Origin: a virus | Virus record (IMG/VR): IMGVR_UViG_3300037092_000015 | Span: 11,478-75,477 of that record | DNA: 64,000 nt | Reading direction: 5' to 3' (one strand) | Shown: positions 41,054-54,095 of the stretch, in pieces | How the letters are laid out: each line of letters opens with the position of its first letter | Position numbering within the stretch: position 1 is the first letter of the stretch | Translations under genes and position numbers: made by a program | Notes under the pieces: generated by a model | What the model was told of the DNA's origin: nothing | The model's database searches: none | What the model saw: only the letters and a program-made list of their open reading frames with translations

Positions 41054-41166
41054 CTGTATCCCGGAGCCGCCTGGCCCCCCATACCCACAACCGTCACTGT
41101 GTTGCCGAATCTCACCAAGGTTCTTCGCGTTCTGCTAAACTTTCGGACCGCAACTGTTACAATGCG

Positions 41167-41195
41167 AAAATAGCGACCGCCTCCGTTTCTGGCAA
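41167..41195 (-). promoter_or_regulatory. sigma70-type promoter upstream of portal
   Basis: TTGCCA-17-TATTTT. Confidence 0.5.
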
Positions 41196-41234
41196 TAGAG
41201 GTTGCGCATTTTGTTTATTTTGTTTGCGGGCAGC

Positions 41235-41260
41235 AAAAAGCCCCGGCTTGCACCGAGGCT
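41235..41260 (-). terminator. Rho-independent terminator
   Basis: AGCCUCGGU-GCAA-GCCGGGGCU-UUUU. Confidence 0.8.
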
Positions 41261-41494
41261 GACACCGATAAGATTGAAGATGTGAACTTCCCTACTTGCC
41301 TCTAGCTCCGTGGAACAGCGCGTCAAACATTGCGTCGCCAGTCTTGCATTCAGCCTTGCCCGCCGCGTAGCCGTCGTTGAACGCTACCCGTATCAGCCGC
41401 TCAAGACTGTCCACCGTCATCGTGACGCGCTTAGCCGCAAACAGCTTCGCGTTGCACTGCCGCACCCGAGCCATGTAGCTATCGGCTGATGCGC

Positions 41495-41716
41495 TCACGC
41501 CGCCTGCTCCCGCCACTCGTCAACGCCCATCTCACGCTCCACGTCCGCCTTCACCTTGGCCGCCGATTCCGCCCGCGTCTCGCCTGAGTTGAACCAAAGC
41601 TCCCGATCCACCGGCTCTCCCGTGGCGCTGGTCCCGTCCGTAAGCGGCTCCACCGACGCCCACGCCACCCACCCCGGACCCACCGCGCCGCGCCGGCACT
41701 TGAAGTAGCCTGTCAC
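41495..41716 (-). CDS. Hypothetical protein
   Basis: Coupled short ORF. Confidence 0.5.
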   Translation of the reverse strand: MTGYFKCRRGAVGPGWVAWASVEPLTDGTSATGEPVDRELWFNSGETRAESAAKVKADVEREMGVDEWREQAA

Positions 41717-42033
41717 CGGCCAGCGCCTTTCTTACCGCTGCGCGGCGGCCTGACCTCTACAGCTACAGGAACCGGCACTGTCAACACCCCGTTCTTCCGC
41801 GCAAGCATCGCCGTCGCCGCCATTTCTGACACTGTTAGGTTCTCTGGGTTCGGGCGCCGCTTGAACACCGCGCACATCGGCCTGCCAGACGGCACGAGCC
41901 GTTCTACAATCATAAACCCGCGACTGTCCACTTGTGGGGGTGCCCCCATGCAGTCTCCCTTGTCCATGCTCGGCTTGCGGTGAAAGTAGAAGCACTGGCC
42001 GCACGTATCCATGCCGTTGATTGTGTTGCTCAT
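41713..42033 (-). CDS. Cys-rich hypothetical protein
   Basis: CGQCFYF...C...PP...C pattern. Confidence 0.6.
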   Translation of the reverse strand: MSNTINGMDTCGQCFYFHRKPSMDKGDCMGAPPQVDSRGFMIVERLVPSGRPMCAVFKRRPNPENLTVSEMAATAMLARKNGVLTVPVPVAVEVRPPRSGKKGAGR

Positions 42034-42035
42034 AG

Positions 42036-42290
42036 TTAAGTTTGCTTGCTGCCGCTGTTCGCTGCCGCCTCTAACGCCCTGTCGTATTCTGCCTCGTCAA
42101 ACTCTATCCTGCCGTTGAACCTGTGCACCGGCCCGATACCTACCGCCGCCCGCCACTCATCATGCAACCGCTCACACCGTAGCCGCCTCTGCGTCTTGCT
42201 GTTCGGGTTCGGCAAGCTGCACAGCAACTGCCGAGCTGCCGCGTGTTTGAGGTTCGCTACCTTGCACTCGCGTCTCTGCTTCGGAGTCAT
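42036..42290 (-). CDS. Hypothetical protein
   Basis: Coupled to the TerL stop. Confidence 0.5.
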   Translation of the reverse strand: MTPKQRRECKVANLKHAAARQLLCSLPNPNSKTQRRLRCERLHDEWRAAVGIGPVHRFNGRIEFDEAEYDRALEAAANSGSKQT

Positions 42291-43678
42291 AGCCTTCCTA
42301 TCATCCTTTCCTCACCTGGACGTCCTGCCGACTGGCTCTTCCATGCGCCACTCCCAAACACCGAGGCGGAACTGAATCCGCCAGACACCCCGAGCGCCAC
42401 TGCCAGATAGCGCAAGGCATCAAGCGCATGATCGTTCTCCTTCACCGGCTGGTCCTTCGGTTTGTCCGGCGCCCAGACGTAGCTCTCGAACTCGTTTATC
42501 AAATTAACGCACGATGGGTCTACCGTCAGCCGTGGCCGCCCGTCACCTGCCACCTTGAGCAAGTTCTGTATCTTGTTGATGCCATCAATCACCCTTCCCT
42601 TTTCCCCGCGTGCGAACACCTGCATGGAGTTCATGTCCGCTATCAGCCCAGCCGCCGCCTCGTCCACCGCTGCGAACTCGTGCCGTCGCCCTTCGGCCTT
42701 GAACCACTTGCACGCCTGCCCGACTACAACGTTCTGTAGCTGGCCGCGCTCATACCACTCTTGAAACACATGCCAACGACCATCGCTGTCCAAACCTACG
42801 TCCAGAATCACAGCCGGGTTCGTGTAGCCCTCGTCGCACGCTAGCAGCCACCGCTTCATGTCGCCAGGCTGCCGAACCAGCACATGCACCGCTGCGCTGA
42901 ACCCGTCATACACCGCACCCTCTGCCGACGCCCACGCGCCCTCGAACAGCCGCTTTCGACGCATTCCAGTCAGGTCGTTCAGCACCGCCATGCGCCGGCT
43001 ACCGTCCTCTGTCAATATATAGGTGCATCCATTGCGTATAACGGAACCTTGCGGGTTGCCTTGAGGAAACTCTTTAGCCGCTTGTTCCGGTGTCAGGTTT
43101 CGGTAGATAGTAGGGTTGTCGGTGTGCACTGACGACAGCAACCGAATCTTTCCATCCTTAGCCCGCTTTCGTATCCAGTGCTGACTCCCGCCAGGGTTCG
43201 CGTCACCGTAGAGTTGCGGCCACTTCACAACCGCCCCGCGACCGCTGCACCGTGTTGCTAAATACTCCCAGTCGTTAAGGGAAAGCTCCTCTGTCTGGCA
43301 TGTGTAAATAAAATCACGCTCGCTGCTAAGGATGCGGTCTGGATTGTCCATTCCACCGCACCATATCGTTGACCCGTTCGGGTAGATGAAACGCGACGGG
43401 GTTTCCCCTCCGAACGCCTCTACTCCGCCGTTGCCATGTGTCACCTTGGCAAACGTCTTTAGCACAGACCCCGCTAGACTAGCCGCAGTCTTGCGCACAA
43501 TAGCCCCCTGGCAGCCCGGGTAGGTCATGCACAATATGTGCGCCTTCATACAGCACGGCCACGTCTTGCCAGTGTCCGAAGGACCACAAATAATAACCTC
43601 GTGCTCCCTCGACGCCACCAAGTCGTAAGCGGCCCCGCGTAGTGGCTCCTTCTTTGACTTGACGATGCGCCGCGCCAT
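42287..43678 (-). CDS. terL: Terminase large subunit (PBSX-like)
   Basis: ICGPSDTGKT, ANPGGSQHWI, ACDEGYTNP, ENDHALDALRY; TAATG overlap with TerS. Confidence 0.92.
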   Translation of the reverse strand: MARRIVKSKKEPLRGAAYDLVASREHEVIICGPSDTGKTWPCCMKAHILCMTYPGCQGAIVRKTAASLAGSVLKTFAKVTHGNGGVEAFGGETPSRFIYPNGSTIWCGGMDNPDRILSSERDFIYTCQTEELSLNDWEYLATRCSGRGAVVKWPQLYGDANPGGSQHWIRKRAKDGKIRLLSSVHTDNPTIYRNLTPEQAAKEFPQGNPQGSVIRNGCTYILTEDGSRRMAVLNDLTGMRRKRLFEGAWASAEGAVYDGFSAAVHVLVRQPGDMKRWLLACDEGYTNPAVILDVGLDSDGRWHVFQEWYERGQLQNVVVGQACKWFKAEGRRHEFAAVDEAAAGLIADMNSMQVFARGEKGRVIDGINKIQNLLKVAGDGRPRLTVDPSCVNLINEFESYVWAPDKPKDQPVKENDHALDALRYLAVALGVSGGFSSASVFGSGAWKSQSAGRPGEERMIGRL

Positions 43679-44262
43679 TACGGAAGGTCCTTCTCCGCCA
43701 CGCCGCAATCCCACACTGCCGTCGCCTCAGTGCCATCCGGTGCCTTGACCGACAATGTGCCACCCTCCCGTGGCGGCTCCCGGTATGTCTTTGGGTCATG
43801 CGACTTGAGTAAGAATATGGTCAGGGTGTCGCTAAACTCCCTCACCTTGTCCACGCATACGGGCTTGCCAGCGGCATTCTTCATCCAGATGCGCTTCTCT
43901 ACCCCGTCTCTTGCCCGTTTAATCGCCGCATTTGTTAGCCTGCCGACTGCTAACTTTAAGGCTTGGTCCCATTGCTTAGCGAACAGTTGGCTTTTCTTTC
44001 GAGCATTGTAGGCGGTCGGTGGCGTGATTCCAGCCTCCTCGCACGACGCTGCTACGTTAGGCACGTTAGCTAATGCCGTAAGGAACTTACTTCGCCAATT
44101 ACCTTTGCCGGCAGCCGTACTTCGCCGCCTTCCTTTTTTAATTCCTTTAGGCGTAACTTTCGTAAATGCTTCCTTGTCACCCTGCCCCGGCCTTATCGTA
44201 GTGCCTACGGGCTTGCCTTTCGCATTTAACTTAACCCCATGTTGGCTGCCGTTGCCGTTCAT
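43678..44262 (-). CDS. terS: Terminase small subunit
   Basis: FLTALANVPNVAASCEEAGI HTH; FSDTLTIFLLKSHDPKTYRE. Confidence 0.8.
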   Translation of the reverse strand: MNGNGSQHGVKLNAKGKPVGTTIRPGQGDKEAFTKVTPKGIKKGRRRSTAAGKGNWRSKFLTALANVPNVAASCEEAGITPPTAYNARKKSQLFAKQWDQALKLAVGRLTNAAIKRARDGVEKRIWMKNAAGKPVCVDKVREFSDTLTIFLLKSHDPKTYREPPREGGTLSVKAPDGTEATAVWDCGVAEKDLP

Positions 44263-44554
44263 GCGTCGAACACCTTTCCTGCGCTAGCCACGATGCGGCC
44301 ACGCTTGTCGGTCAGCCTTTTGTTGTTTGCATTTGTTGTCAGCCCCATATTGCTCCCGTTATCTTTTCCTCCTTACTACCCCAAAACCCCATCGCCCGGT
44401 TCCTGGGGCGTGGCCTGCTCGTCTTGAACTCCTTGGCTATCTGCCGCGTCTGAGCCTCGACGAACACGTCGCCAGACTCCCACCTTATCGGCTCCCCGTT
44501 GCGACCGATGTCGGTCTCGCAGCCTGAAACTTCTAATGTCCTATGCATTGCGCT

Positions 44555-44575
44555 GTTATGTAACTTTGGTTAGGG
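44555..44575 (+). repeat. attI-like/secondary site at the array head
   Basis: GTTATGTAACTTTG-GTTAGGG; GTTAGGGGTCAT is the exact complement of ATGACCCCTAAC at attC1. Confidence 0.55.
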
Positions 44576-44576
44576 G

Positions 44577-45233
44577 TCATAGCAGCACGCCTTGGTTTGC
44601 CTCGCGTTCCAGACGGGAGCAGGCGGTTGCGTAGTGTGTCGGATTCTTCTCGATGCCCACGAAGTTGCGGCGAGTTTTCAGACAGGCCAGCCCTGTGCTT
44701 CCGCTGCCCATCCACGGGTCTAGCACGGTGTCGCCTTCCTTCGTTACGTCGAGGATGATTTGTTGCATCAGTCGCACCGGCTTCTGTGACGGATGCCCTG
44801 TCCATTCGTCGCCAGTGTATGACGCCGCGACGGTCGAGTTGATCAGGTATTGCCGATAGACTTTGTAGTTCGCCTGACCGTTGCGCTCGTAGATGCGTTC
44901 GTATTGGCTTCCGCAGCCTGTCTTTTTATCCCAGATGTGGATTGCCGTGTAGTCGAGCGGGAAGTCCGCCTTCGCAGACCAGAAGATGAGTTGCCGACAT
45001 TCTATCAGGCGCAGAGATTCGAGCAGCCCGTCCTCGTATCCGTAGGCTTCCGCGTGGTAGTCAGGATATGGCGGGTCACAGATTATCACGTCGCACTTCA
45101 TCGGGAGCATCGTCTGGCAGTCGCCGAGTATGAGAGTCGCCACGACATGACCCCTAACAAATCGCTTCAGCGAACCGCCGTTGGGCGTCGCAGGCGAGTT
45201 CGGGAGCGTTAGCTCGGCGGTCGCTGAGCTCAT
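44577..45233 (-). CDS. DNA methyltransferase (N6A/N4C, beta class), cassette-borne
   Basis: DPPY, HPSQKP, DPWMGSGSTG. Confidence 0.9.
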   Translation of the reverse strand: MSSATAELTLPNSPATPNGGSLKRFVRGHVVATLILGDCQTMLPMKCDVIICDPPYPDYHAEAYGYEDGLLESLRLIECRQLIFWSAKADFPLDYTAIHIWDKKTGCGSQYERIYERNGQANYKVYRQYLINSTVAASYTGDEWTGHPSQKPVRLMQQIILDVTKEGDTVLDPWMGSGSTGLACLKTRRNFVGIEKNPTHYATACSRLEREANQGVLL

Positions 45234-45242
45234 ACGTTAGAC
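45152..45242 (+). repeat. attC1
   Basis: CCCTAAC aaatc GCTTCAGC...GCTGAGC tcatac GTTAGAC. Confidence 0.88.
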
Positions 45243-45390
45243 AGCCGGGCCGCACGTTGGGTTTGCGTTTGGTTTTCGACCAGCGGGCGGCGACCGCAGC
45301 GCGGGCTTGCTCGCTGGTGCGGGCTTTTGCCGCGCCAGTCCCAGCAGACCCTCCGAGTTTTCCGAGCGCGACCGCGGCGGGATTTTTCAT
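45154..45390 (-). CDS. Small basic protein (KNPAAVALGKLGG type)
   Basis: MKNPAAVALGKLGGSAGTGAAKARTSEQARAAVAARW; tail reads into attC1. Confidence 0.65.
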   Translation of the reverse strand: MKNPAAVALGKLGGSAGTGAAKARTSEQARAAVAARWSKTKRKPNVRPGCLTYELSDRRANAPELACDAQRRFAEAIC

Positions 45391-45656
45391 TGAACTAAAC
45401 ATTTTGCCGCGCCGAGCGCGTCTGCCGTGATTCCAATCCGAAGCATATCTTCCGCCGCCCTGCGGGATTTTGGCCCGTAGTAATTTTCCCCCAGGAAGCT
45501 GCCAGCCTTGCAGTCAATCCATTCGATTTGGTCGGGCGCGATTTGCACCCCATCGCGGTCGCAGATTTGTTCGCCTCGAATTTCGACACCCTCACTCACA
45601 ACCAACATTTTCGTTACCGGATCAATCCGGTTTTTTATTCTGGCACAGGTATTCAT
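45387..45656 (-). CDS. Hypothetical cassette protein
   Basis: 89 aa, ATGA-coupled. Confidence 0.6.
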   Translation of the reverse strand: MNTCARIKNRIDPVTKMLVVSEGVEIRGEQICDRDGVQIAPDQIEWIDCKAGSFLGENYYGPKSRRAAEDMLRIGITADALGAAKCLVQ

Positions 45657-45695
45657 ATTTTTAAGCAGGGATTAGTTTCCTCTCCCTTTGATTTT

Positions 45696-46019
45696 TTAAT
45701 AGCGTTCGCCGGGAAGGTCTGGGGTTGCCCGGAGTTTGGGGCGCGCAAGGAAGGCTTTGTTGCTCGCTTCGCGAGCCGCTTTGCCAGCCTCACGTTGAGC
45801 CGCCGCCGCCGATTCTTCTTGCTGATAGGCGGCCAATTGTGCGGTATGCACACGAGCGCCAACCACTTTACCTTCGGGTGAATATTTGCTTCCGACCAGA
45901 TGAAACGGAATGGCTTCACCTTTTGCGGTTTTGAAGCCGCCTTCCGGTTGAAGGATTGCATCTGTCCACTGTCCGCCGCCGGTTTGTCCGGCTGGCACTC
46001 TTGGTTCGTCTTCGTTCAT
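45696..46019 (-). CDS. Cassette protein with N-terminal PRVPAGxxGGGQW motif
   Basis: MNEDEPRVPAGQTGGGQWT. Confidence 0.65.
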   Translation of the reverse strand: MNEDEPRVPAGQTGGGQWTDAILQPEGGFKTAKGEAIPFHLVGSKYSPEGKVVGARVHTAQLAAYQQEESAAAAQREAGKAAREASNKAFLARPKLRATPDLPGERY

Positions 46020-46067
46020 TTTTTCTTTCGTTGGCTTGGCTTACTGGGCCTCGCCCTTTATGCCTGC

Positions 46068-46096
46068 AATATACGCAAGCGATTGCGTATATGCAA
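46068..46096 (-). promoter_or_regulatory. Cassette-internal promoter overlapped by a 10-bp inverted repeat
   Basis: TTGCAT-17-TATATT; ATATACGCAA-gcga-TTGCGTATAT. Confidence 0.75.
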
Positions 46097-46158
46097 ACAA
46101 AATCTTCATTTATTTACACACTCACAAAACCATTGATTCTATTGACTCAAACCGGCCT

Positions 46159-46258
46159 GCCCAACAAATCGCTGCACGCAATGACCGCCGCATTGGGCGT
46201 CATTGGCGAGTTCGGGCATCGTGGGCGCGGCGTTCATGCGTGAGCTTGGTCGTTGGGC
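46159..46258 (+). repeat. attC2
   Basis: GCCCAAC aaatc GCTGCACG...CGTGAGC ttggtc GTTGGGC. Confidence 0.9.
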
Positions 46259-46283
46259 GCTTAGTCACTCCGCGCCCGATGCG

Positions 46284-46598
46284 TTACGGGTTTTTCGTGT
46301 AGTCCTTTTCCCCCGCCTTTTGGATATCCTCGAAAAATCCAGGCCGATGCACTCGCGCCACCGGCGAGTTGAACCACGGATTGTTGCGTTGCGCCCAGTC
46401 CACGGCCTTCTCCCCAGCGCGCGGCAGTGCGGCCTGCGCCTCTTTGATGGCTTGCGGAATATGCGTTTGCTCGATGTTTGTCCGCTGAGGCAGGCTTTGG
46501 AGTCTGCCGATTTCGGAGCTGATGACCGCTCCCGTCTCGGGCATGAATTGCCCGCCTTCCGGCGATCCCGCCGGGACTCTTGGTTGATCTGGATTCAT
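46284..46598 (-). CDS. Cassette protein with N-terminal QPRVPAGSPEGGQF motif
   Basis: MNPDQPRVPAGSPEGGQFM. Confidence 0.7.
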   Translation of the reverse strand: MNPDQPRVPAGSPEGGQFMPETGAVISSEIGRLQSLPQRTNIEQTHIPQAIKEAQAALPRAGEKAVDWAQRNNPWFNSPVARVHRPGFFEDIQKAGEKDYTKNP

Positions 46599-46621
46599 TG
46601 TGTGTTTTTGTTGTTCGACGC

Positions 46622-46716
46622 GCCCAACCAATCACTGGAGCGAATGCAGGCGGGCGCTGCCTGTTCGCAAATTCGGATGTCAGTGGCCGCCTGCATCGCT
46701 CAGTTCTGCGTTCGGC
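46622..46716 (+). repeat. attC3
   Basis: GCCCAAC...GTTCGGC; near-identical to attC8. Confidence 0.9.
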
Positions 46717-46988
46717 ATCTGAAATTCCAATTGCCTCTGGACCGGCTTGTCGAACGTTTTCCACGCTGGGTCAGTACAGAAGGGATGCAGGTCCACGAAG
46801 GCATTGTAGTAGATCCCCCAGGAGTGTGTGATGCAGATTCTGAGATTCAGTCGGAAGTTGTATTCTTCCGTAGTCAGGTATCGGTCATCATCGGCCTCCG
46901 AATGCCGAACCAGACGCTCCACACGAACCGCCGCCAGCCTCTCGGACTCCGGGAGGCTGTTTCGTTTTCGGGCGGCAGTGGTGTTCAT
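46680..46988 (-). CDS. Cassette protein (starts in attC4, ends in attC3)
   Basis: ...VERLVRH...MPNAELSDAGGH. Confidence 0.6.
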   Translation of the reverse strand: MNTTAARKRNSLPESERLAAVRVERLVRHSEADDDRYLTTEEYNFRLNLRICITHSWGIYYNAFVDLHPFCTDPAWKTFDKPVQRQLEFQMPNAELSDAGGH

Positions 46989-47017
46989 GGCGGCGGTCGG
47001 TGAGCTACTTGTTCGGC
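46904..47017 (+). repeat. attC4
   Basis: GCCGAAC cagac GCTCCAC...GTGAGC tactt GTTCGGC. Confidence 0.88.
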
Positions 47018-47322
47018 GCGCGCAGGCATTCCTCCCACGTCATGCCGCAGACTTTCTTGTAATGCTTTGCCGAGGCCACCAGTTCCCGCGCGGTCTTTCC
47101 CGACGCGACGACCTGCTCTCGCGTGTAGTCGAAGTTCACCGGCTTTCCGTCTTGGTCCTGCCATTGGCCTTCGCTGCGCTCGTTCCAGCCCAGGACCAGG
47201 AAGTGGGTTCCGTAGGGAGAAGTGATGCGCGCCGCGTCGCACTTGAACATGCGGACGAATCGCCGAACCAAGCGCTCCAGACAACCGCCGACGGGCGTCT
47301 CTTTTGAAGTCGTAGCGTTCAT
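47005..47322 (-). CDS. Cassette protein (starts in attC5, ends in attC4)
   Basis: ...LERLVRR...RAPNK. Confidence 0.65.
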   Translation of the reverse strand: MNATTSKETPVGGCLERLVRRFVRMFKCDAARITSPYGTHFLVLGWNERSEGQWQDQDGKPVNFDYTREQVVASGKTARELVASAKHYKKVCGMTWEECLRAPNK

Positions 47323-47352
47323 GTCGGCGGTGTCTGAGCTTGGTCGTTCGGA
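47262..47352 (+). repeat. attC5
   Basis: GCCGAAC caagc GCTCCAGA...TCTGAGC ttggtc GTTCGGA. Confidence 0.88.
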
Positions 47353-47699
47353 GATGCATTAATGCGCTTGATAATACAGCTTGTGCAGAGCGTTCTCCCT
47401 CGTGTGGTCGTTGGCAGACTCCCCATCCGGCCTGTGTTCTGCGGAAATGCTGCGATGATATTCCTGGCATTGCTCCGCGCTTTGGATAGCTGCTCACGCT
47501 TGTTCCCCCCCAGCCTAGGGGCGACCAGTGCAGATAGCGCGTCCAGCAGGATTCGCTCTCGCGCTCGGACAGCCGTTCCCAGTCCTGAGACTGATGTTGG
47601 TCCGCGGACGATACCATTGCATAGGTCGGTGATCTGGCTCTCAATCGCAGAACCAAGCGGGTCGAGCGAACTGCCCGATTGCGTCTCAGGTTTATTCAT
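47319..47699 (-). CDS. Cassette protein with C-terminal CxxC
   Basis: Starts in attC6, ends SPNDQAQTPPT in attC5. Confidence 0.6.
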   Translation of the reverse strand: MNKPETQSGSSLDPLGSAIESQITDLCNGIVRGPTSVSGLGTAVRARERILLDALSALVAPRLGGNKREQLSKARSNARNIIAAFPQNTGRMGSLPTTTRGRTLCTSCIIKRINASPNDQAQTPPT

Positions 47700-47738
47700 A
47701 GCGTTTTGGCGGGCAGTCGCTCACCCGCGGCGTTCGGT
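47647..47738 (+). repeat. attC6
   Basis: GCAGAAC...GAGCGAACTGCCCG/CGGGCAGTCGCTC...GTTCGGT. Confidence 0.82.
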
Positions 47739-47995
47739 GGAAGCGGTTGACCGCATTCCTTGCAACAGCTTGGGGCCTTCTGCTTCTCTGCCAGTTCTGC
47801 GTCGTGGACCAGCATCGCCGCTGCCAACCTTCGGCTGGCCATCGTGAAACGGCGCCACAAATATTCTTCGTGCGTTTGCAGGCACGGCCTTGGTCTGTTC
47901 GTATGCGCCAGCGCCCATGCATCCCTCCACCAAACGCACCGAACCAATCGCGGCAGCGAACCGCCGACTGGCGTTGTTGCAATAGGGGTGTTCAT
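47696..47995 (-). CDS. Cassette protein with CxxC
   Basis: Starts in attC7, ends PPNAAGERLPAKTL in attC6. Confidence 0.6.
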   Translation of the reverse strand: MNTPIATTPVGGSLPRLVRCVWWRDAWALAHTNRPRPCLQTHEEYLWRRFTMASRRLAAAMLVHDAELAEKQKAPSCCKECGQPLPPNAAGERLPAKTL

Positions 47996-48031
47996 TGGTG
48001 GTTATCGCCGCCGCTCAGCTTGTCGTTGGGG
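47938..48031 (+). repeat. attC7 (more degenerate)
   Basis: ACCGAAC caatc GCGGCAGC...GTTGGGG. Confidence 0.7.
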
Positions 48032-48058
48032 CGCTTAGTCACTCCACGCCCAGTTACG

Positions 48059-48334
48059 CTATTGCGCGGTGTTTTCACACGCCGGTAGTGCCGATGTGTC
48101 GGCGACTTTCTTGATGTCCCCAAGCTTGGCTCGTACGTCGTCAATGTGCAGGCATTCCGCCAGGTTGCATCCAGCTTGGTCTGCTACCGGCACGGCTAGG
48201 TTGCCGTTGCAGGCGTCGTTTCCAGGAGTCGCATCGTGGAGTATTCCGACGATGGACTTCACGTAGTATCCGGGCGGCACGATGCGGAGCACGCGGTCCC
48301 CGTTCTTTGCTTCTCTTCCGTTTGCGTAGTGCAT
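48059..48334 (-). CDS. Cassette protein (MHYANGREAKNGD type)
   Basis: 91 aa, self-contained within its cassette. Confidence 0.7.
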   Translation of the reverse strand: MHYANGREAKNGDRVLRIVPPGYYVKSIVGILHDATPGNDACNGNLAVPVADQAGCNLAECLHIDDVRAKLGDIKKVADTSALPACENTAQ

Positions 48335-48360
48335 ACTTATGTTCTGTGTTTACCGTCGCG

Positions 48361-48455
48361 CCCTAACCAATCACTAGAGCGAATGCAGGCGGGCGCTGCC
48401 TGTTCGCAAATGGGTTTGTCAGTGGCCGCCTGCATCGCTCAGTTCTGTGTTCGGT
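48361..48455 (+). repeat. attC8
   Basis: CCCTAAC...GTTCGGT; near-identical to attC3. Confidence 0.9.
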
Positions 48456-48646
48456 GATGTGTTTTCCACGGTCACATACCCAAGGAATGCCATCGTTTTC
48501 CCGCAACAGCGAGGCATGGGAGCATCTGCCCCGAGATAGGCAGGCACATATTCCTCTCGCCCACACTGTCGGCAGTAGTGCTTGAAGCATCTCACCGAAC
48601 GAGCCGCGTCAGCCAACGGCGGGGTTACGCTTTTAGTGTTCTTCAT
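48419..48646 (-). CDS. Zn-ribbon cassette protein
   Basis: YCRQCG...PRCCGKTM; ends SPNTELSDAGGH. Confidence 0.6.
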   Translation of the reverse strand: MKNTKSVTPPLADAARSVRCFKHYCRQCGREEYVPAYLGADAPMPRCCGKTMAFLGYVTVENTSPNTELSDAGGH

Positions 48647-48685
48647 ACGTCCTTTGGCCCGCCGTGGCTGCGCTCTGTGTTATGC
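48594..48685 (+). repeat. attC9
   Basis: ACCGAAC...CAGCCAACGGCGGG/CCCGCCGTGGCTG...GTTATGC. Confidence 0.85.
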
Positions 48686-48769
48686 CCTACCATCGGAAGG
48701 TTCCCGTATCGTCGATTTTGCGGGTGAGCCACCAGACCACGATCATCAGTATTATCAGTTCCATATGGT

Positions 48770-48964
48770 TTATTTATTCCCTCTGAGCAGGCGGTAGGCG
48801 CGGATCGCTACAGCGTCCCACACGGCTACTGATTCGCTTGGCAGGTCTCTGAATTTACAGAGGGGGCGCCCCCAGATTGATTTTGGCTGGCTCAGCATTT
48901 CTTTCCGGCTAGCGTTGTAGAGTTTGATAGCCAGTGTTCGGGCTTCATCTAGTTTTTGTTTCAT
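48770..48964 (-). CDS. Cassette protein
   Basis: 64 aa, ATGA-coupled. Confidence 0.5.
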   Translation of the reverse strand: MKQKLDEARTLAIKLYNASRKEMLSQPKSIWGRPLCKFRDLPSESVAVWDAVAIRAYRLLRGNK

Positions 48965-49194
48965 GGCAGTAGGTCGTTGAGGCGCTTCTGGAGCGCGGTT
49001 GCCAGCACGCTAACCTTTGTCTGTTGCTCTGAGGCTGGCAGGTTTTCGATTTCGTAGCACAGGTTCAGCGCGGCGCTTCTGGCGTCCCCGATTCCCCGGT
49101 GCAGTTTGATTTCTTTCGCAGTCGTAGCCGTGGCCACCTGCGAGAGTTCCAGATACAGGCTGTTGATAGTGTCGAGTTCCATAGGCATAACCAA
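48961..49194 (-). CDS. Cassette protein
   Basis: 77 aa, starts at attC10. Confidence 0.55.
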   Translation of the reverse strand: MVMPMELDTINSLYLELSQVATATTAKEIKLHRGIGDARSAALNLCYEIENLPASEQQTKVSVLATALQKRLNDLLP

Positions 49195-49243
49195 TCACGC
49201 CACCGAACCGGCTCCGCGCCGGTCGGTGAGTTCCTTGTTATGC
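49185..49243 (+). repeat. attC10 (59 bp)
   Basis: GCATAAC...CACCGAACCGG/CCGGTCGGTG...GTTATGC. Confidence 0.88.
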
Positions 49244-49473
49244 CTGCACCCCAGGACGTGAGTGATGGTGCCGCCATTCGGGCCGGGGTCGTTGAGGCAC
49301 TCGGGGCACTGCACGGCCATTTTGTCCGCGCAGGTTTTTCCCGGCGCATATGTCGCGCAGTTCGAGCATTCACCGAGCAGATACCATCCGCACCAGCACT
49401 TTGCTGCCGCTGGCAGGTTGCTCAGCATGTCCATGTATTCTTGTTGGTCAGAGTTAAACATCGCAGCGCTCAC
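49195..49473 (-). CDS. Cys-rich cassette protein
   Basis: CWCGW...CSNC...CPEC; ends RHNKELTDRRGAGSVA. Confidence 0.6.
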   Translation of the reverse strand: MSAAMFNSDQQEYMDMLSNLPAAAKCWCGWYLLGECSNCATYAPGKTCADKMAVQCPECLNDPGPNGGTITHVLGCRHNKELTDRRGAGSVA

Positions 49474-50153
49474 AATTCATCCGGTTCGCAGGCGTTGTCG
49501 AAGTGCCGCTTGTCCTTCTCGACGCCGATAAATTTACGACCAGTCCGCAGGCAGGCGATTCCCGTGCTGCCGCTGCCCATGTATGGGTCTAGCACCGTTG
49601 CCCCGACCGGCACGCCAACTTGTTCCAGACACCACGCCATCAGCGCGACCGGCTTTTGGTTGCTGTGGATTCGCGGCTCGTCCTTTTCCTTCGCTTGCGC
49701 ACCGTTCCAATAGCGCGTTTTCAGCCGCAGAACGCCGTCCTGGTTTGTCCACGCCGTCTCGCCGTCGGCCTGGTCGTTGCTTGGGATGCCTTCGCGCTTG
49801 TCCCATATCAGCCACCGTGAGGAGTTCGGCAGGCGGTTCGCGTAGTGATTCGCGCCCCACAGCACCACAATTGGATAGCCGAGCCACGGGCGCGGGTCGA
49901 ACGGCTTGTCATCGCCCATGATTGCCTCGCCATCAGTGCCGAGTTTCACGCCGCCTTTACGCGCTCCGTGGCAGTAGGCGATTCCATACGGCGGGTCGCT
50001 GATTAGCGCGTCCGCGTCTATCCACGGAAGCTCCAGACAGTCGGCATTGATTAGTCGGCAGTCTCCGATTGTGACCCCTAACAAGTCGCTGCACGCAATG
50101 CCCACCGCGTTCACGGTTTGCTTGCAATCGGGTGCTGTTGGCGCGGTGGTCAT
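49470..50153 (-). CDS. DNA methyltransferase (N6A/N4C, beta class), cassette-borne, slightly truncated at C-terminus
   Basis: SDPPYG, HSNQKP, DPYMGSGSTG. Confidence 0.9.
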   Translation of the reverse strand: MTTAPTAPDCKQTVNAVGIACSDLLGVTIGDCRLINADCLELPWIDADALISDPPYGIAYCHGARKGGVKLGTDGEAIMGDDKPFDPRPWLGYPIVVLWGANHYANRLPNSSRWLIWDKREGIPSNDQADGETAWTNQDGVLRLKTRYWNGAQAKEKDEPRIHSNQKPVALMAWCLEQVGVPVGATVLDPYMGSGSTGIACLRTGRKFIGVEKDKRHFDNACEPDEL

Positions 50154-50173
50154 GCGTGAGCTAGTCGTTATCC
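50076..50173 (+). repeat. attC11
   Basis: CCCTAAC aagtc GCTGCACG...CGTGAGC tagtc GTTATCC. Confidence 0.88.
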
Positions 50174-50488
50174 TTCATGCTGTGTAGGTATTCCGTGGTC
50201 AGGGTGCTGGTATTCTGGATACTTGCGGCCCTTGACAGGCTCTCCGCGCAGCGGAGCTCCGCACTGCTCCATACATGCCACTCCAGTTGCTGTGATCTGT
50301 CGGATTTCATGCAGCGCCTTGTCGTCGCCGTGCCCTGTTACCCACGCATGGCGGGCATCGTTGCACAGTTTTTCGATGATGAGCAGCCACTCGGCTACAC
50401 AGTGTTGATGATCGGGCCACTTCTGTTCTTGGTAGGCGCGTTCGCCTTCGATTGCATGTCTTACGTCTGCATCTATATGTCGATTCAT
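50168..50488 (-). CDS. Cassette protein, helical MazG-like candidate
   Basis: AIEGERAYQEQKW...EWLLII...EIRQITATGVACME. Confidence 0.55.
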   Translation of the reverse strand: MNRHIDADVRHAIEGERAYQEQKWPDHQHCVAEWLLIIEKLCNDARHAWVTGHGDDKALHEIRQITATGVACMEQCGAPLRGEPVKGRKYPEYQHPDHGIPTQHEG

Positions 50489-50489
50489 A

Positions 50490-50580
50490 GGATAACGAGT
50501 CGGTTCAGCGACTGCCGGGTTCGCGTTTGGGTTTCAGTTCGGGAGTCAGCGGCCCGGCATCGCTGACCTCTTTGTTCCGG
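50490..50580 (+). repeat. attC12
   Basis: GGATAAC gagtc GGTTCAGC...GCTGACC tcttt GTTCCGG. Confidence 0.85.
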
Positions 50581-50891
50581 GCTGCCGATCCGGAACCTTT
50601 GCATGTGGGGCATTTCCGCCCTGGCTCAGCTTGTTTGTTCGTCGCGCCGGAATGAGCGCCGCCAGCCTCTTCCTTGGCTGCCGCAAGTTCACCCTGCCTC
50701 AGCCGAACGCTAGCCGTGATTGACTGCCGCATGGTCCAGCCGTCCTCGTCGCGGCCTCGCGCCTTCCAAAATCGCCGCGCACCGGCCCTCACCGAAGCAG
50801 CCATCTGACGCAGCGGCTCACCGGTCGGATGCTCAAGCACCGTCTCCCAGTCTCCCTGCTGAATCGTTGCTAGATTTAGACCGTCGTTCAT
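50505..50891 (-). CDS. Hypothetical protein reading into attC12
   Basis: CPTCKGSG, then ARNKEVSDAGP across the core site. Confidence 0.55.
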   Translation of the reverse strand: MNDGLNLATIQQGDWETVLEHPTGEPLRQMAASVRAGARRFWKARGRDEDGWTMRQSITASVRLRQGELAAAKEEAGGAHSGATNKQAEPGRKCPTCKGSGSAARNKEVSDAGPLTPELKPKREPGSR

Positions 50892-51420
50892 CGCGTCACT
50901 CCATCCACGCTATTATCCCACTGTCGTATTGCACCACAGTCACAAGACTCACTTGGCCGCATATCCTACAAACCACCTTTGCCTTACCGCCGCCGGCCCC
51001 GATCTTGAAATACCGATCTACCACCACAGCGTCATTGTGTCCGCACCGTCTGTTTCTTCTTGGCCAGTAGTAGCTACACAATACGAAGAACGATACAACG
51101 CAAGCCGACGGCAGTAACAGTATCACCCAGTCAAGAATCGTCACTTGGCACCTCGCGATTCCTTTTCCGCCTTGTGCTCGACCGGCTTCCGTATCCCAGC
51201 TTTCGGTTCCGTGAACGCCGTGCACTGGCTTCCGTGGTTGCTGACCGCCGGCTTGTTAAAGACGCAGCACCAACCCGCAATGCCAGTGTCCAGCGCATCC
51301 CAGTAGTAGCAGGTAGCACAGGTTGCGCTCATGCTGGTGTGTTATTTTTCATGCTTACACTTTTATGAAACGCCTAGTCACTACTTGGTTTGGAAACCAT
51401 GTCATTCCATCCGGCCGGGT

Positions 51421-51672
51421 CTAGCAAGCCTGCCTATATTTCTCTTCATTTTCTTGCCTCGCTAGTAAAGTAGCTGCGACCACCTGTAATCTTGAAACAT
51501 CCTGCTCTACCATCATCCGCAGCGCGTCCTTGGCCGCAGTTCGCGCCTTGCCAGCCCCGCGCCCCGGCAGCCGCGTCACCGCTTGCAGCGCCAGCTTCGC
51601 CAGTTCCAAGTGCAACTCCTGACGGCGGATACGGTCCTTGCTGGCGCGGGGCGTCTGCATGTCAGTCAACAC
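51421..51672 (-). CDS. Hypothetical protein
   Basis: ORF in operon. Confidence 0.45.
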   Translation of the reverse strand: MLTDMQTPRASKDRIRRQELHLELAKLALQAVTRLPGRGAGKARTAAKDALRMMVEQDVSRLQVVAATLLARQENEEKYRQAC

Positions 51673-52471
51673 TCTCGACCAAGTGCTTGAAGAAGCTTCG
51701 GTTCAGAACCCGGAACGTCGCCAAATGGCCTGTGCCTAGCTTCTCGACATATTGTTTGGAAGCCCAGTAGGCCAGATTGTGCACAGCCGTGTCCGGTTTC
51801 ACCTTGTCAATCAATGCACTGTGACCGTTAGCAACCACCGCCTGCATTAACTCGTCGCATGTGAAAGGTTTTTCAAACTTGAGCACCGCCCGCTTCATTG
51901 CGGCCCCAAGCGTGCTAGGAGCGTCCAACAAGTCCTCAGTGCTTCGCACAGCAGCTTGAATCTTTACCGCGTCAGGCTTCGGCGTCCATTTCTGCACGAC
52001 AGTCACCGCGCCTTCTGCTACAAGTAGCGGCTTTGTTTTCGACCAGTAACCGTAACCAGCCGACCACAACTTACCGTCCCGCTTCTGCCGATTGGCCCAG
52101 CAACTCACTAGGCTCTTGCTGAACCCGGAAGCCTTTCGTATGGCCCGCAACTTCATAGGGTCCGGCATAGATTTGACTATGCCCCACAGAACGCCGTCCG
52201 TACTACCGGGCGCTGGCACTGGCTTCCTGTTGCCGTTTCCGCCGTTCCTTGAAGCAGGCTTTGACAACCGCGCACCGTGCACGGTTGAAGTTCTTTTAGG
52301 CGCAACCGGCATGGTTGGCTGGTCTGGCATATTGCATCCTGACTCCCCTTCCCGGAACGCCTCCAGTTCCTTGATTAGTGCCGTGAACCGTTCAACCCTC
52401 GCCCGTAGCGCCGCGATGGTGTTGTTAATTGCCGTCATCATGTCTTGTGCCCTTTCGGATTGGTTGGCCAT
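51662..52471 (-). CDS. Basic protein with possible winged-HTH domains
   Basis: 269 aa, K/R-rich. Confidence 0.55.
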   Translation of the reverse strand: MANQSERAQDMMTAINNTIAALRARVERFTALIKELEAFREGESGCNMPDQPTMPVAPKRTSTVHGARLSKPASRNGGNGNRKPVPAPGSTDGVLWGIVKSMPDPMKLRAIRKASGFSKSLVSCWANRQKRDGKLWSAGYGYWSKTKPLLVAEGAVTVVQKWTPKPDAVKIQAAVRSTEDLLDAPSTLGAAMKRAVLKFEKPFTCDELMQAVVANGHSALIDKVKPDTAVHNLAYWASKQYVEKLGTGHLATFRVLNRSFFKHLVESVD

Positions 52472-52653
52472 GCTTCCGCCATTGTAGCCAACGGCTGCCC
52501 TGGCGCAACATAATTCTGCTTTGTTTTCGACCCGGCCGCTTCCGCCTCTAGCTGCTCCAGCGCCAGCGCAGCCTCCACCAGCAGCCTTGCCAACAGGTCG
52601 TCACCTCGCGACTCAGCCGCGTCCCGTAGCCGTTGCACGATGGTGTTGCTCAT
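52438..52653 (-). CDS. Hypothetical protein
   Basis: MSNTIVQRLRDAAE. Confidence 0.5.
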   Translation of the reverse strand: MSNTIVQRLRDAAESRGDDLLARLLVEAALALEQLEAEAAGSKTKQNYVAPGQPLATMAEAWPTNPKGHKT

Positions 52654-52895
52654 AGCATTTCTAAGTCATCATCTGCGCACCGGCGCGAACAGTATTCTTT
52701 CCACCACGGCAGCCACAGCGGCACAATGGCCCGGTGGCAGTTCTTGCCTGGCACCCACGCCTTTGGGTCGCCTTTGTAGCTCACCCAGCTTACAGTCCAA
52801 CGCGGCCAGCCACCCCAGTAAGGACGCCCGCACATCATGCACCATTGCAGTGGAATCCACCCAATGTATCGCCGCCAGTAGTATCGCCACTTCAC
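52650..52895 (-). CDS. Trp/Cys-rich hypothetical protein
   Basis: CMMCG...YCSRRC. Confidence 0.5.
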   Translation of the reverse strand: MKWRYYWRRYIGWIPLQWCMMCGRPYWGGWPRWTVSWVSYKGDPKAWVPGKNCHRAIVPLWLPWWKEYCSRRCADDDLEML

Positions 52896-53113
52896 TGCGG
52901 CACCTCCATTCGCCTATCCTTCACGAACCGCTGCTCCCACTTGCTAAGCCCCGCCAGGAACGTAGCCCTGTATTGCGAGTCTAGTTCGTCGTGCGTCTTC
53001 CTCAACTGCACCAGCTTGTTCCGTTCGTAATCTGGGTTTGTGACCTCATACCCGCCGCCACACCCGCCGCGGTTGCCGCCTCGCGCCCGGCTGGAATTTG
53101 CAATGGTGCTCAT
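52892..53113 (-). CDS. Hypothetical protein
   Basis: Coupled ORF. Confidence 0.45.
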   Translation of the reverse strand: MSTIANSSRARGGNRGGCGGGYEVTNPDYERNKLVQLRKTHDELDSQYRATFLAGLSKWEQRFVKDRRMEVPQ

Positions 53114-53124
53114 TGTTTTGCTGT

Positions 53125-53445
53125 GATTGAATGCACGCGCCGGGAAGTGCTCAGGCGTCGTATTTCACGGAGCGGGAGCCGGTGCCCAGGATATTCCCAA
53201 CAGCCTAATATTTGAGAAACATCCTGTCCCGGGCCGTGTCTGCGTCCAACCCCGCTAAGAGCGGACAGATTAGACCGCGTGCATCTGTTCCACGCTAAGG
53301 AAGCCTTTCCCGAATTGCTGTGCGTTAATTCGCTCATGCGGAAGACTGGGGACCAGACCCGTTTAAGTGAGGGCTTCTTGCGCTCTGGCGCGTGTTCGCG
53401 TGATAAATTGTTAGTCGGTCCGGCTCGCGACCCGGCAGGAAGCAT
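53125..53445 (-). ncRNA. Candidate structured RNA
   Basis: ATGCACGCG (53131-53139) pairs with CGCGTGCAT (53276-53284); CAGGAUGUU/AAUAUCCUG; further hairpins; overlapping ORFs look non-protein-like. Confidence 0.4.
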
Positions 53446-53554
53446 CTCAACTTCCTAATCTCTGCATTCTCCGCAGCCTCCATTGCTTGCAGCTTGCGAT
53501 TCAACGCTACAGCCTTCTTTCTTCGGCTTCTAGGTGTGCTGCTCATAGCATCTC

Positions 53555-54095
53555 AGGGTTGCATCAGGTTTCTCGCCTTACACCCTGTTGATCCCTACTC
53601 AAACGGGAGCCAAGCAGCACGCGGCCACTGGCAGGCACCAGCCTTCCCGGTTGTTTCAAAAGTCCCATCTCAGTGTCTGTTCGCATCGCGGGCTTTAGCG
53701 AGTCCCGGTAGCAACAAGTACTTTTGAACCTTACAGCATCAAACCAATCGTCTTGCGGACACTTTTTTGGCAACGGTAAGCCATCCCTCCGTGACGGGAT
53801 CATCAAGCTTTCGCGTATGACAACAATCGGACACCCTTCGCACCGCCTTGTGATGTTGGCTGAACTTTCCAGCCGTTCTTGTTGCCGCCAGTCGGGTTTT
53901 ACCCCAACACGGGTTGTGAATTTCATGGCACACGAATGCGCCATCCGAAGCCGTAAGACCAATGTCGAATGCGTTCTCACGGTAGTTTATCGCAGATGGT
54001 TTGATCTGGCCAGTGCCCAACAGGAGCATCACATCTGGCGGTGTGGTCCGCATTATAGCGGCGTGTTCCCCGGCCTTGCGGATCATCGGGGTGAT
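53555..54095 (-). ncRNA. Large ornate non-coding RNA (~540 nt)
   Basis: Three nested long-range helices crossed by a 14-bp pseudoknot; UUCG/GNRA hairpins; directly follows a tRNA-like RNA. Confidence 0.75.

Follow-up and report, generated by a model that had tools for sequence, protein, structure and literature searches.

The locus described here raises the question of whether a phage can keep a genuine integron-type array of its own accessory genes and, if so, how such an array would be exchanged. Integrons are bacterial gene-collecting and gene-reshuffling devices, best known for the spread of antibiotic resistance, and the phage examples known to us to date look like small borrowed pieces. 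A canonical cassette carries its open reading frame (ORF) on the top strand with the attC site at the 3' end, is read from the attI side and starts with a sequence (TTxxxx) complementary to the R'' box of its own attC. In attC sites the R'' (..AAC) and R' (GTT..) cores flank L''/L' imperfect inverted repeats with 5-6-nt unpaired spacers; structure is conserved over sequence, the loop length is variable (57-141 bp), and recombination by the integron integrase (IntI) occurs at the G/TT point of R' on the bottom strand. The window analysed comprises 64,000 nucleotides (positions 11,478 to 75,477) of the IMG/VR record IMGVR_UViG_3300037092_000015, the whole record being 75,477 bp long, and an earlier note made from the sequence had read part of it as a phage-borne, shufflable array of accessory genes.

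Twelve attC sites (11 canonical and one degenerate) of a single polarity (+) were located within 5.4 kb (45156-50576), all being AAC...GTT imperfect inverted repeats:

45156-45238, + polarity: attC A1, layout score 15/15
46163-46254, + polarity: attC A2
46626-46712, + polarity: attC A3, layout score 15/15
46908-47013, + polarity: attC A4, layout score 12
47266-47348, + polarity: attC A5
47651-47734, + polarity: attC A6
47942-48027, + polarity: attC A7, degenerate, 3' arm misfits the layout
48365-48451, + polarity: attC A8, nearly identical to A3
48598-48681, + polarity: attC A9
49189-49239, + polarity: attC A10, short
50080-50169, + polarity: attC A11
50494-50576, + polarity: attC A12, terminal site of the array

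Their lengths are 51-106 nt from core to core and 59-114 nt including the 7-nt R boxes. The twelve imperfect inverted repeats of 59-114 bp reported earlier were recovered, and 11 of the 12 fit the attC layout, with a spacer of 5 nt on the R'' side and 5-6 nt on the R' side. A strict layout scanner, which requires AAC, a 5-nt spacer, 3 bp, a bulge, 6 bp, a bulge and the stem on the 5' side, a contiguous 3' arm, a 5-6-nt spacer and GTT on the 3' side, and at least 13 of 15 bp paired, was applied to the full 75,477-bp record. It identified 10 sites, every one in the array and of + polarity, with no attC sites in the rest of the record and 0 sites in five dinucleotide shuffles; the attC of aadA1 (plasmid R100), used as the control, gave a perfect 15/15 with the identical layout.

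In the folded bottom strand, extrahelical bases are confined to the R''-L'' arm with a 6-bp stem from the first to the last, the last being a conserved T on the bottom strand and the first usually a G (PMC5027507). This pattern is present in the 11 fitting sites. Both bulges lie on the + strand 5' arm (the arm of 5'-AAC-3') in 11 of 11 sites, and their spacing is 6 bp in 10 of 11 (A4 fits with 5). Read on the - strand, the distal bulge is a T in all but one of the 11, while the first extrahelical base is variable, with G in only about 3 of 11 sites as against the usual G (PMC5027507). Covariation extends to every stem position, at least two Watson-Crick pair types being observed at all 15 of them and 6 of the 165 stem cells being unpaired. 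The array sites are structurally canonical attC sites.

The junctions between the cassettes carry the expected signature as well. As had been proposed, each cassette opens with a GTT core whose complement is found in the AAC core of the following site, the R'/R'' match extending over about 7-12 bp, and the core pairs quoted in support (GTTAGGGGTCAT/ATGACCCCTAAC, GTTCGGCAT, GTTCGGTGA, GTTATGCC, GTTATCCT) are all present. The mean identical prefix is 7.1 nt for adjacent sites versus 3.7 nt for non-adjacent pairs, a value reached by none of the permutations (0/20000), and the pairing between R'' and R' of the same site is often limited to 3-5 nt. The starts of the array cassettes are thus complementary to the R'' of their own attC, as in canonical cassettes. 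The array opens on the left at the following junction:

44549-44571, + strand: left junction in the attI position, backbone joined to the first cassette at GTT 44569-71

Here GTTAGGGGTCAT matches the reverse complement of the A1 R'' box at 12 of 12 positions, and the homology of the methyltransferase cassette of L136 begins exactly at 44569. Folding of 44549-44571 yielded no hairpin, and the array junctions beside phage intI genes are only loosely alike. A 69-aa ORF on the backbone side (44339-44548, - strand) has its start codon 21 nt from the GTT core at 44569-71.

The array consists of twelve cassettes of 230-1016 bp, each ended by an attC on the + (top) strand; the cargo comprises small proteins, about 16 in all, and two DNA methyltransferases that differ from each other:

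44570-45236, - strand: C1, N6/N4 DNA methyltransferase ORF 44577-45233, attC A1 at the 5' end of the gene
45237-46252, - strand: C2, ORFs 45154-45390, 45387-45656 and 45696-46019, attC A2
46253-46710, - strand: C3, ORF 46284-46598 (codon score +0.23), attC A3
46711-47011, - strand: C4, ORF 46680-46988, start ATG in the attC A4 loop
47012-47346, - strand: C5, ORF 47005-47322, start in the attC A5 loop
47347-47732, - strand: C6, ORF 47319-47699, start in the attC A6 loop
47733-48025, - strand: C7, ORF 47696-47995, degenerate attC A7
48026-48449, - strand: C8, ORF 48059-48334, attC A8
48450-48679, - strand: C9, 75-aa ORF 48419-48646 with CxxC...CC (zinc-ribbon-like), start in the attC A9 loop
48680-49237, - strand: C10, ORFs 48770-48964 and 48961-49188, short attC A10
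49238-50167, - strand: C11, Cys-rich ORF 49195-49461 and second N6/N4 methyltransferase 49470-50153, attC A11
50168-50574, - strand: C12, ORF 50168-50488, terminal attC A12

The presence of two methyltransferases in the cargo, noticed earlier, is supported by matches of both to PF01555 and phrog_67 (E=1.5e-22 and E=6e-35, the latter from residue 33, for C1; E=1.6e-17 and E=2e-38, the latter from residue 27, for C11), and these orphan methylases probably protect against restriction. The C2 ORFs had no match in Pfam or PHROG and the 75-aa ORF of C9 none in Pfam; C2 also contains a promoter-like site over a 10-bp palindrome (46069-46092). The A6 type of attC is 76-79% conserved in L041, L059 and L132, and the 5' half of A7 recurs in peat run X5 with an intact 3' arm and a loose end at 47998.

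Every cassette gene lies on the bottom (-) strand. The bottom strand of attC is therefore the coding (sense) strand and attC is situated at the 5' end of each gene, the reverse of the canonical arrangement, which the control aadA1 cassette follows. This reversal was overlooked in the earlier note. Both methylase matches, in Pfam and in PHROG, are on the - strand, and the codon score is positive in 13 of the 17 - strand ORFs and negative in all 11 + strand ORFs, for which the Pfam search gave no match. The attC loop often holds the start codon of the cassette gene, and all in-frame starts of the C11 methyltransferase that retain the DPPY motif fall within attC A11 (50080-50169). Many ORFs overrun the crossover point by 7-43 nt into the neighbouring attC, so that the cassettes are imperfectly self-contained. 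Because many ORFs begin within the attC loop, they have in common an N-terminal motif (GGSLxRLVR and the like), which is the L''/R'' arm of attC translated in frame; the 'motif-tagged proteins' described earlier are therefore no protein family.

A hairpin at the 5' end of each gene might also be expected of expression signals, intergenic structures in RNA or DNA that merely resemble attC and act in setting translation starts or in transcript stability, whether REP-like or of the promoter-stem-loop (PeSL) type of T4-type phages. An ATG in the loop opens a long ORF at 58 of 142 sites in viral arrays versus 4 of 45 in bacterial arrays, and a Shine-Dalgarno sequence is absent from most cassette genes, both of which favour such a role. 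It is nevertheless very unlikely to be the whole explanation, as it accounts neither for the exact attC geometry that the sites have in common with aadA1, nor for AAC/GTT flanks matching across cassettes and not within a site, nor for the GTT breakpoints that differ from sample to sample (see below). In five viral records, bona fide IntI is encoded beside arrays of this type. The sense strand yielded no terminator-like site, and the Rfam search gave no match. The PeSL cassettes of T4-type phages, which carry promoters and are thought to mediate gene shuffling via homologous recombination, are similar in having repeated hairpins between small accessory genes in a plastic phage region, whereas the array sites have the attC core, spacer and bulge design and integrase-type crossover points. 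The hairpins may have a translation role on top of recombination.

The source is an uncultured tailed phage from peat, apparently virulent, in which the array lies between the replication genes and the terminase genes. A helicase and a methylase are encoded on its right and TerS, TerL and the portal protein on its left, in agreement with its earlier placement between the early genes and terminase:

42287-44262, - strand: packaging genes (TerS and TerL), directly downstream of the array in the direction of transcription
43678-44262, - strand: TerS (phrog_4044, E=3e-22)
42287-43714, - strand: TerL (phrog_5653, E=7e-27)

No integrase had been noticed in the window, and the search of the whole 75-kb record likewise revealed no tyrosine or serine recombinase with the TIGR02249, PF00589 and PF00239 profiles and no IntI remnant by tblastn with phage and bacterial IntI proteins. 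The array, with 12 sites of one polarity, is thus a CALIN (at least two attC sites in a row with no intI nearby) and not a complete integron, which has intI beside the array. Array-type attC sites were also found in 38 other viral contigs. In G001, a complete relative (terminal repeats, CheckV 100%), at least 8 of these sites lie upstream of TerL, and the same three profiles find no recombinase. The clearly called cassettes of the viral contigs are all reversed (22 reversed, 0 canonical), whereas those with the same attC type in bacterial metagenome-assembled genomes (MAGs), mostly Verrucomicrobiota, are all canonical (14 canonical, 0 reversed). IntI is encoded by 5 of the 10 checked viral records with such arrays (274-348 bits), including G007, which has a major head protein, and by 3 of the 5 checked array-bearing bacterial genomes (two Verrucomicrobiota and one gammaproteobacterium; 368-472 bits). 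The viral IntI is located at the attI end of the array and is co-directional with the reversed cassettes.

Similar attC types are present in bacterial integrons and the record was assembled from a metagenome, so that a fragment of a chromosomal integron from a bacterium might have been misjoined to a phage contig. Such an artefact is hardly credible, since contigs of independent runs bridge the backbone into the array (record 2 of run X3 spans 42309-44571 and beyond), the cassette genes match the phage genes in strand and codon usage, the array of G001, a relative with terminal repeats, occupies the equivalent position and genes run the other way in bacterial arrays of this type.

Comparison of peat runs X3-X6 revealed different cassettes in a flanking backbone that is at least 99% identical. 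The points at which contigs part company lie just past the GTT cores, at 44571, 46715 and 49240; those of runs X3 and X4 follow the backbone as far as 44571 and then continue in different sequence, and a contig of run X5 diverges immediately 3' of the A10 GTT. One X4 contig is without C4, 46709 being joined to 47011 with 301 nt skipped, which corresponds to the distance from the A3 GTT to the A4 GTT; this core-to-core difference puts the crossover at R' of the + strand, the position to be expected from recombination of the - strand. The deletion is seen in a single Logan contig, in which one side is covered by no more than 31 nt and the joint has 7 nt in common, and may alternatively reflect microhomology-mediated deletion or a different array order. 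Further breakpoints lie away from the G/TT points, at 46167, 47998 and 50560, where contigs from other samples break inside attC or at R''; in several of them the break is on the R'' side of A2 (46167), a position not predicted by a simple R' crossover.

With its canonical attC sites, tailed-phage context and cassette change at G/TT on a near-identical backbone, the locus sustains the earlier reading of a shufflable accessory array, and we consider it highly probable that it is a genuine integron-type array without an integrase, whose reversed cassettes would be exchanged by IntI supplied in trans. The integrase would be provided by the host or by a similar phage infecting the same cell, fold the - strand hairpins and swap strands at the R' core, so that whole cassettes would be excised, inserted and exchanged and the phage population would thereby shuffle accessory genes, probably anti-restriction in function. 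Exchange is presumably ongoing today, although contigs cannot show current exchange. Further weak points of this reading are that no integrase is linked to the phage and that A7 is degenerate.

These two points would also suit an array of real attC sites that no longer recombines and was inherited from an intI-bearing ancestor phage, with the differences arising by homologous or microhomology-mediated recombination between hairpins. The lack of an integrase extends to the complete relative G001, some breakpoints in other samples lie at R'' or within attC as listed above, and the occurrence of related arrays beside phage intI makes a loss of intI plausible. This alternative appears unlikely all the same, because in 10 of the 12 sites the conserved T bulge is retained along with 13-15 of the 15 stem pairs, the first cassette switches exactly at the GTT core despite the near-identity of the backbone, the 301-nt difference spans exactly core to core and the R-box signature across cassettes, which would decay without site-specific exchange, is sharp.

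The earlier note gave chromosomes and plasmids as the places where such footprints are normally described, which no longer holds, as phage attC clusters without an integrase have already been published (PMC9892861). Qi, Rajabal, Ghaly, Tetu and Gillings (2023, Front Microbiol) described CALINs in bacteriophage genomes, including methyltransferase cassettes, in a survey of 10,705 isolate genomes that yielded 17 CALINs with a minimum of two sites each, and IntI1 recombined 5 of the 6 phage attC sites tested (PMC9892861). Those CALINs resemble the present array in the clustering of attC in phage without intI, the methyltransferase cassettes and the idea of an integrase acting in trans, and differ from it in several respects: the present array has 12 sites, its genes all occupy the bottom strand with starts in attC loops, and it belongs to a large family of like arrays from uncultured viral contigs, part of which encode IntI themselves. 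Reversed cassettes are unmentioned in the text of that study, from which the words opposite, reverse and antisense are absent (PMC9892861), and no paper describing the reversed cassette design was found.

The sedentary chromosomal integrons of Verrucomicrobiota MAGs (L167, L172) and class 1 integrons (aadA1, Tn21/R100) have the cores, the R-box signature and the site design (5-nt spacer, 3 bp, bulge, 6 bp, T bulge, variable loop, 5-6-nt spacer) in common with the array, and the platform order intI-attI-array is common to them and the IntI-bearing viral relatives. They differ in gene orientation: bacterial cassettes, in 14 of 14 clear cases as well as in aadA1, have a top-strand gene followed by attC at the 3' end, while the genes of the present array occupy the bottom strand and have attC at the 5' end. 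The present array, moreover, is without intI, a recognisable attI or a Pc promoter reading in from the attI end, and phage transcription enters it from the far end.

A broader and more tentative proposal, to which we give somewhat less than even weight, is that soil, peat and freshwater phages, with hosts perhaps among the Verrucomicrobiota and neighbouring groups, operate their own integron system. It would comprise a distinct pool of reversed cassettes, with attC at the 5' end of the gene and often the source of its start codon, phage-encoded IntI in some members, and integrase-less arrays, the present one included, relying on IntI of the host or a co-infecting phage. The co-directionality of phage IntI and cassettes would make the whole module fit one-way phage transcription. 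If this is true, phage cassettes in a bacterial integron and bacterial cassettes in a phage array would both be read antisense owing to the reversal, and the two cassette pools would have the enzyme in common but not expression. The reversed strand polarity raises the testable question of why it arose, and surveys that assume an ORF upstream of attC may mis-delimit reversed cassettes. This array and roughly 40 like it in viral contigs suggest that some phages use integron recombination chemistry for their own accessory genes, with a cassette architecture adapted to phage transcription, which would mean that phage genomes can also become mosaic by a site-specific route and would help to spot small phage genes of fast turnover, which are candidate counter-defence genes.

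The viral record (75,477 bp, linear, CheckV 81%) is that of a tailed phage with nearly all of its genes on the - strand. The array has the replication side on one flank and the terminase on the other, as in the following list of window positions.

39167-41053, portal
42287-43714, large terminase
43678-44262, small terminase
44570-50574, - strand genes, cassettes C1 to C12
45156-50576, + strand polarity, attC sites A1 to A12
58115-59104, DNA methylase (third in the phage, in the backbone, beside the helicase)
59095-60498, helicase

No tRNA genes were found in the window. Shine-Dalgarno sequences are absent before most window genes, the leaders being A/C-rich, and GGAGG was seen ahead of one internal ATG only, at 46890. 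The array had no blastn match in 50,697 isolate phage records, and a host search with the large terminase gave no match in 2 x 401 genomes (from the phyla of one Verrucomicrobiota and one Acidobacteriota genome, the second set apparently repeating the first).

The twelve imperfect inverted repeats running from AAC to GTT, read as attC sites in the earlier note, are all present where it had placed them. Rfam searches of the window at gathering thresholds were without a match; attC apparently has no Rfam family. A MAFFT alignment of all 12 sites placed three 3' arms wrongly (A2, A7 and A11), so detection relied on a layout scanner, checked against a positive control, and not on a covariance model. 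The layout comprises AAC, a 5-nt spacer, 3 bp, one bulged base, 6 bp, one bulged base and further stem, followed by a contiguous 15-nt 3' arm, a 5-6-nt spacer and GTT, with a threshold of at least 13 of 15 pairs. The aadA1 attC site (Tn21, plasmid R100) was recovered by the same scanner with an identical layout and the full score of 15/15; its polarity is that of the aadA1 sense strand and it lies downstream of the gene. A strict scan of the 75 kb identified ten sites, all within the array and all of + polarity, and zero sites in five dinucleotide shuffles. A4 falls short with a score of 12, and the 3' arm of A7 does not fit the layout. A thirteenth candidate with AAC and GTT ends (50594-50639) was not counted because the segment does not fold. 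Two or more types of Watson-Crick pair occur at 15/15 stem positions across 11 sites, with 6/165 cells unpaired; the sites conserve structure, not sequence.

The extrahelical bases of attC share an arm with the top-strand 5'-AAC-3', the bottom-strand L'' base being usually G and the farthest extrahelical base a conserved T, and the distance from the first to the last bulge must be 6 bp (Nivina et al. 2016, PMC5027507). The array sites follow this design, in agreement with the earlier reading, both bulges lying on the 5' arm of the + strand 6 bp apart. Ten of the 11 sites carry a - strand T at the distal bulge, while the proximal bulge varies (A, C and G in three sites each, T in one and a two-base bulge in one). 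The bulge arm, the spacing and the distal T thus identify the + strand as the top strand and the - strand as the recombinogenic bottom strand.

When the GTT-side box (R') of one site is compared with the reverse-complemented AAC-side box (R'') of the site that follows it, the two agree: the identical prefix averages 7.1 nt, whereas other R'/R'' pairs average 3.7 nt, and 0 of 20000 permutations reached the observed value; within one site, R'' and R' often agree over just 3-5 nt. This is exactly the pattern that repeated crossover at G|TT produces. Because such complementarity is symmetric, it cannot tell which attC travels with which gene, and the pairing was decided solely by where a 301-nt skip falls in a contig from the peat metagenome run X4, in which 46709 is joined to 47011 (with only 31 nt on one side of the joint and 7 nt shared). 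The skip equals the distance from the GTT of A3 to the GTT of A4, the AAC-to-AAC distance being 282. Such a core-to-core skip indicates that the mobile unit consists of gene C4 together with the attC ahead of it, and that crossover occurs at the + strand R', matching the canonical bottom-strand chemistry.

Logan contigs from four other peat metagenomes (X3-X6), which are evidence of presence and not of ongoing exchange, were aligned to window 41000-54000. The backbone on both sides of the array was found in the peat metagenomes at 99% or more, and cassettes differ on this one backbone. In X3 and X4, a contig follows the window over 42309-44571 and then departs from it, so that the first cassette is a different one and the break falls exactly at the GTT core 44569-71. 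Further contigs part from the window just past the GTT of A3 (46715) and of A10 (49240). Breaks at GTT cores, as implied by the earlier note, are thus seen at 44571, 46715, 49240 and the 301-nt skip; other breaks are at 46167 (R'' of A2), 47998 (inside A7) and 50560 (inside A12). A methylase cassette of a further viral contig, L136, is similar to the window from exactly 44569 onward. A joint in X6 that goes back 558 nt (49231 to 48674), considered as a circle or a tandem cassette, was discarded, being a 43-nt likeness of 90% with a different spacer.

A 49-nt piece just left of the A2 R'' (46119-46167) is present in X3, X5 and X6 with different flanks on both sides, and could represent a small module that is conserved or mobile. 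One contig of run X3 parts from the window immediately behind a GTT at 50637-39, 61 nt past the last attC, with the backbone back at 50681, which makes the true right end of the array uncertain. The final codons of a 128-aa ORF (50505-50891) come from array sequence.

All array genes are on the - strand, including both cassette methyltransferases (PF01555 and phrog_67). In a codon model trained on the long genes of the same phage, 13 of 17 - strand array ORFs score positive and 11 of 11 long + strand ORFs score negative; a Pfam search of eight long + strand ORFs gave no match. The bottom strand is thus the sense strand, with attC at the 5' end of the gene, an orientation opposite to that of aadA1 and of bacterial arrays. 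This strand call is based on the Pfam and PHROG matches and codon usage, since a strict ORF-coverage test found 9/9 inter-site segments of the window ambiguous, both strands being open in GC-rich DNA. The attC loop supplies the ATG of many array ORFs, whose reading frames then cross L'' and R'' and yield N-termini such as MNATTSKETPVGGCLERLVRR. The motif tag noticed earlier on the cassette proteins is real, and its origin is the attC L''/R'' read in frame. All in-frame starts of the second methylase that keep its DPPY motif fall inside A11, and in both methylases the alignments from PHROG and BLASTP start at about residue 27-34, past the attC-encoded extension.

The two cassette methylases are mutually 32% identical, a divergence that would fit a role in restriction evasion. 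About 16 small cassette ORFs had no Pfam or PHROG match. The proteins of 45696-46019 and 46284-46598 are alike over the first ~30 residues only (MN.D.PRVPAG..GGQ, 52% identity) and then wholly divergent. A 23-nt hairpin, GGGCGCTTAGTCACTCC(G/A)CGCCC, occurs after the R' of A2 and A7 (46255-46277 and 48029-48051), just past the stop codons of the C3 and C8 genes; these cassettes have both ends in common and different ORFs, and in run X4 the hairpin is followed by a different ORF (loose end at 46278). C2 is atypical, with three ORFs and a promoter-like TTTGCA-18-TATATT on the - strand, overlying a perfect 10-bp palindrome, ATATACGCAA/TTGCGTATAT (46069-46092), that may be an operator. An 86-nt deletion is seen in the C2 region in run X3 (46019 to 46106).

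The absence of an integrase, claimed earlier for the window, extends to the whole record, in which profile searches with TIGR02249, PF00589 and PF00239 gave no match. A search for an intI remnant, by tblastn of four phage and one bacterial IntI, found nothing below E=0.3 in the whole record and no match near 44262-44570. A related large terminase was found at 41 viral loci, of which just one has an array, L041 (TerL 45% identical; 55,166 bp, terminal repeats, 100% complete). The L041 array has eight strict sites upstream of the terminase, again opposite in polarity to the genes, with cross-cassette R-box matches of 10-11 nt, and no recombinase was found in this complete genome with the same three profiles.

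Further viral arrays were sought by scanning for the pattern of one common L'' type, which yielded at least 116 viral stretches and at least 38 viral contigs with two or more strict sites, none of mixed polarity. In the viral contigs listed, the strict test classed 22 inter-site segments as reversed (gene on the attC bottom strand), 0 as canonical and 75 as ambiguous. The same pattern in bacterial genomes gave arrays mainly in Verrucomicrobiota MAGs, with 14 canonical, 0 reversed and 15 ambiguous segments; three of five array-bearing bacterial genomes checked (two Verrucomicrobiota, one gammaproteobacterium) carry IntI (368-472 bits). A long bottom-strand ORF starts within attC or at most 45 nt beyond it at 136 of the 142 viral sites listed, with a loop-ATG start at 58 of those, against 4/45 bacterial sites.

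IntI scoring above the curated TIGR02249 cut-off (274-348 bits) was identified in five of ten further array-bearing viral records, in all five at the attI end of the array and on the strand opposite the top strand, hence co-directional with the reversed cassettes. The viral contigs with a complete integron platform are as follows.

L096 (with L288, L289)
L144
L118
L059 with L052
L132

The platform order is IntI, 22-35 nt (measured in L096 and L144), the GTT junction and the reversed cassette array. The phage IntI are 34-45% identical to bacterial IntI. No terminase (phrog_2) was found in the five IntI-bearing viral records. One of the IntI-bearing records, G007 (43.5 kb, 100% complete), is assigned to a phage by its predicted major head protein (E=4e-33), which is encoded on the same strand as a tail-fibre-like protein and a separate attachment integrase; its platform sits on the upstream side of the structural genes, as does the array of the window.

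Clusters of attC sites lacking an integron integrase (CALINs) in phages, the methylase cassettes therein and their recombination by IntI1 are already published (Qi et al. 2023, PMC9892861). Reversed cassettes are not mentioned in that paper, and a full-text literature search of incomplete coverage found no paper on them; phage CALINs are thus known, while for the reversed design we found no published description in this non-exhaustive search.

We propose that the host, or a co-infecting phage that carries intI, would supply an IntI in trans, and that this integrase would fold the - strand hairpins during phage replication and recombine attC with attC, and perhaps the junction with attC. The loop start codon may provide each cassette with its own translation start in a genome mostly without Shine-Dalgarno sequences. 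Phage transcription would enter the array at the end far from attI, and the reversal would align the cassettes, and intI where present, with this one-way transcription. Such a reversal would also leave the genes of either cassette pool, phage or bacterial, unexpressed in the other.
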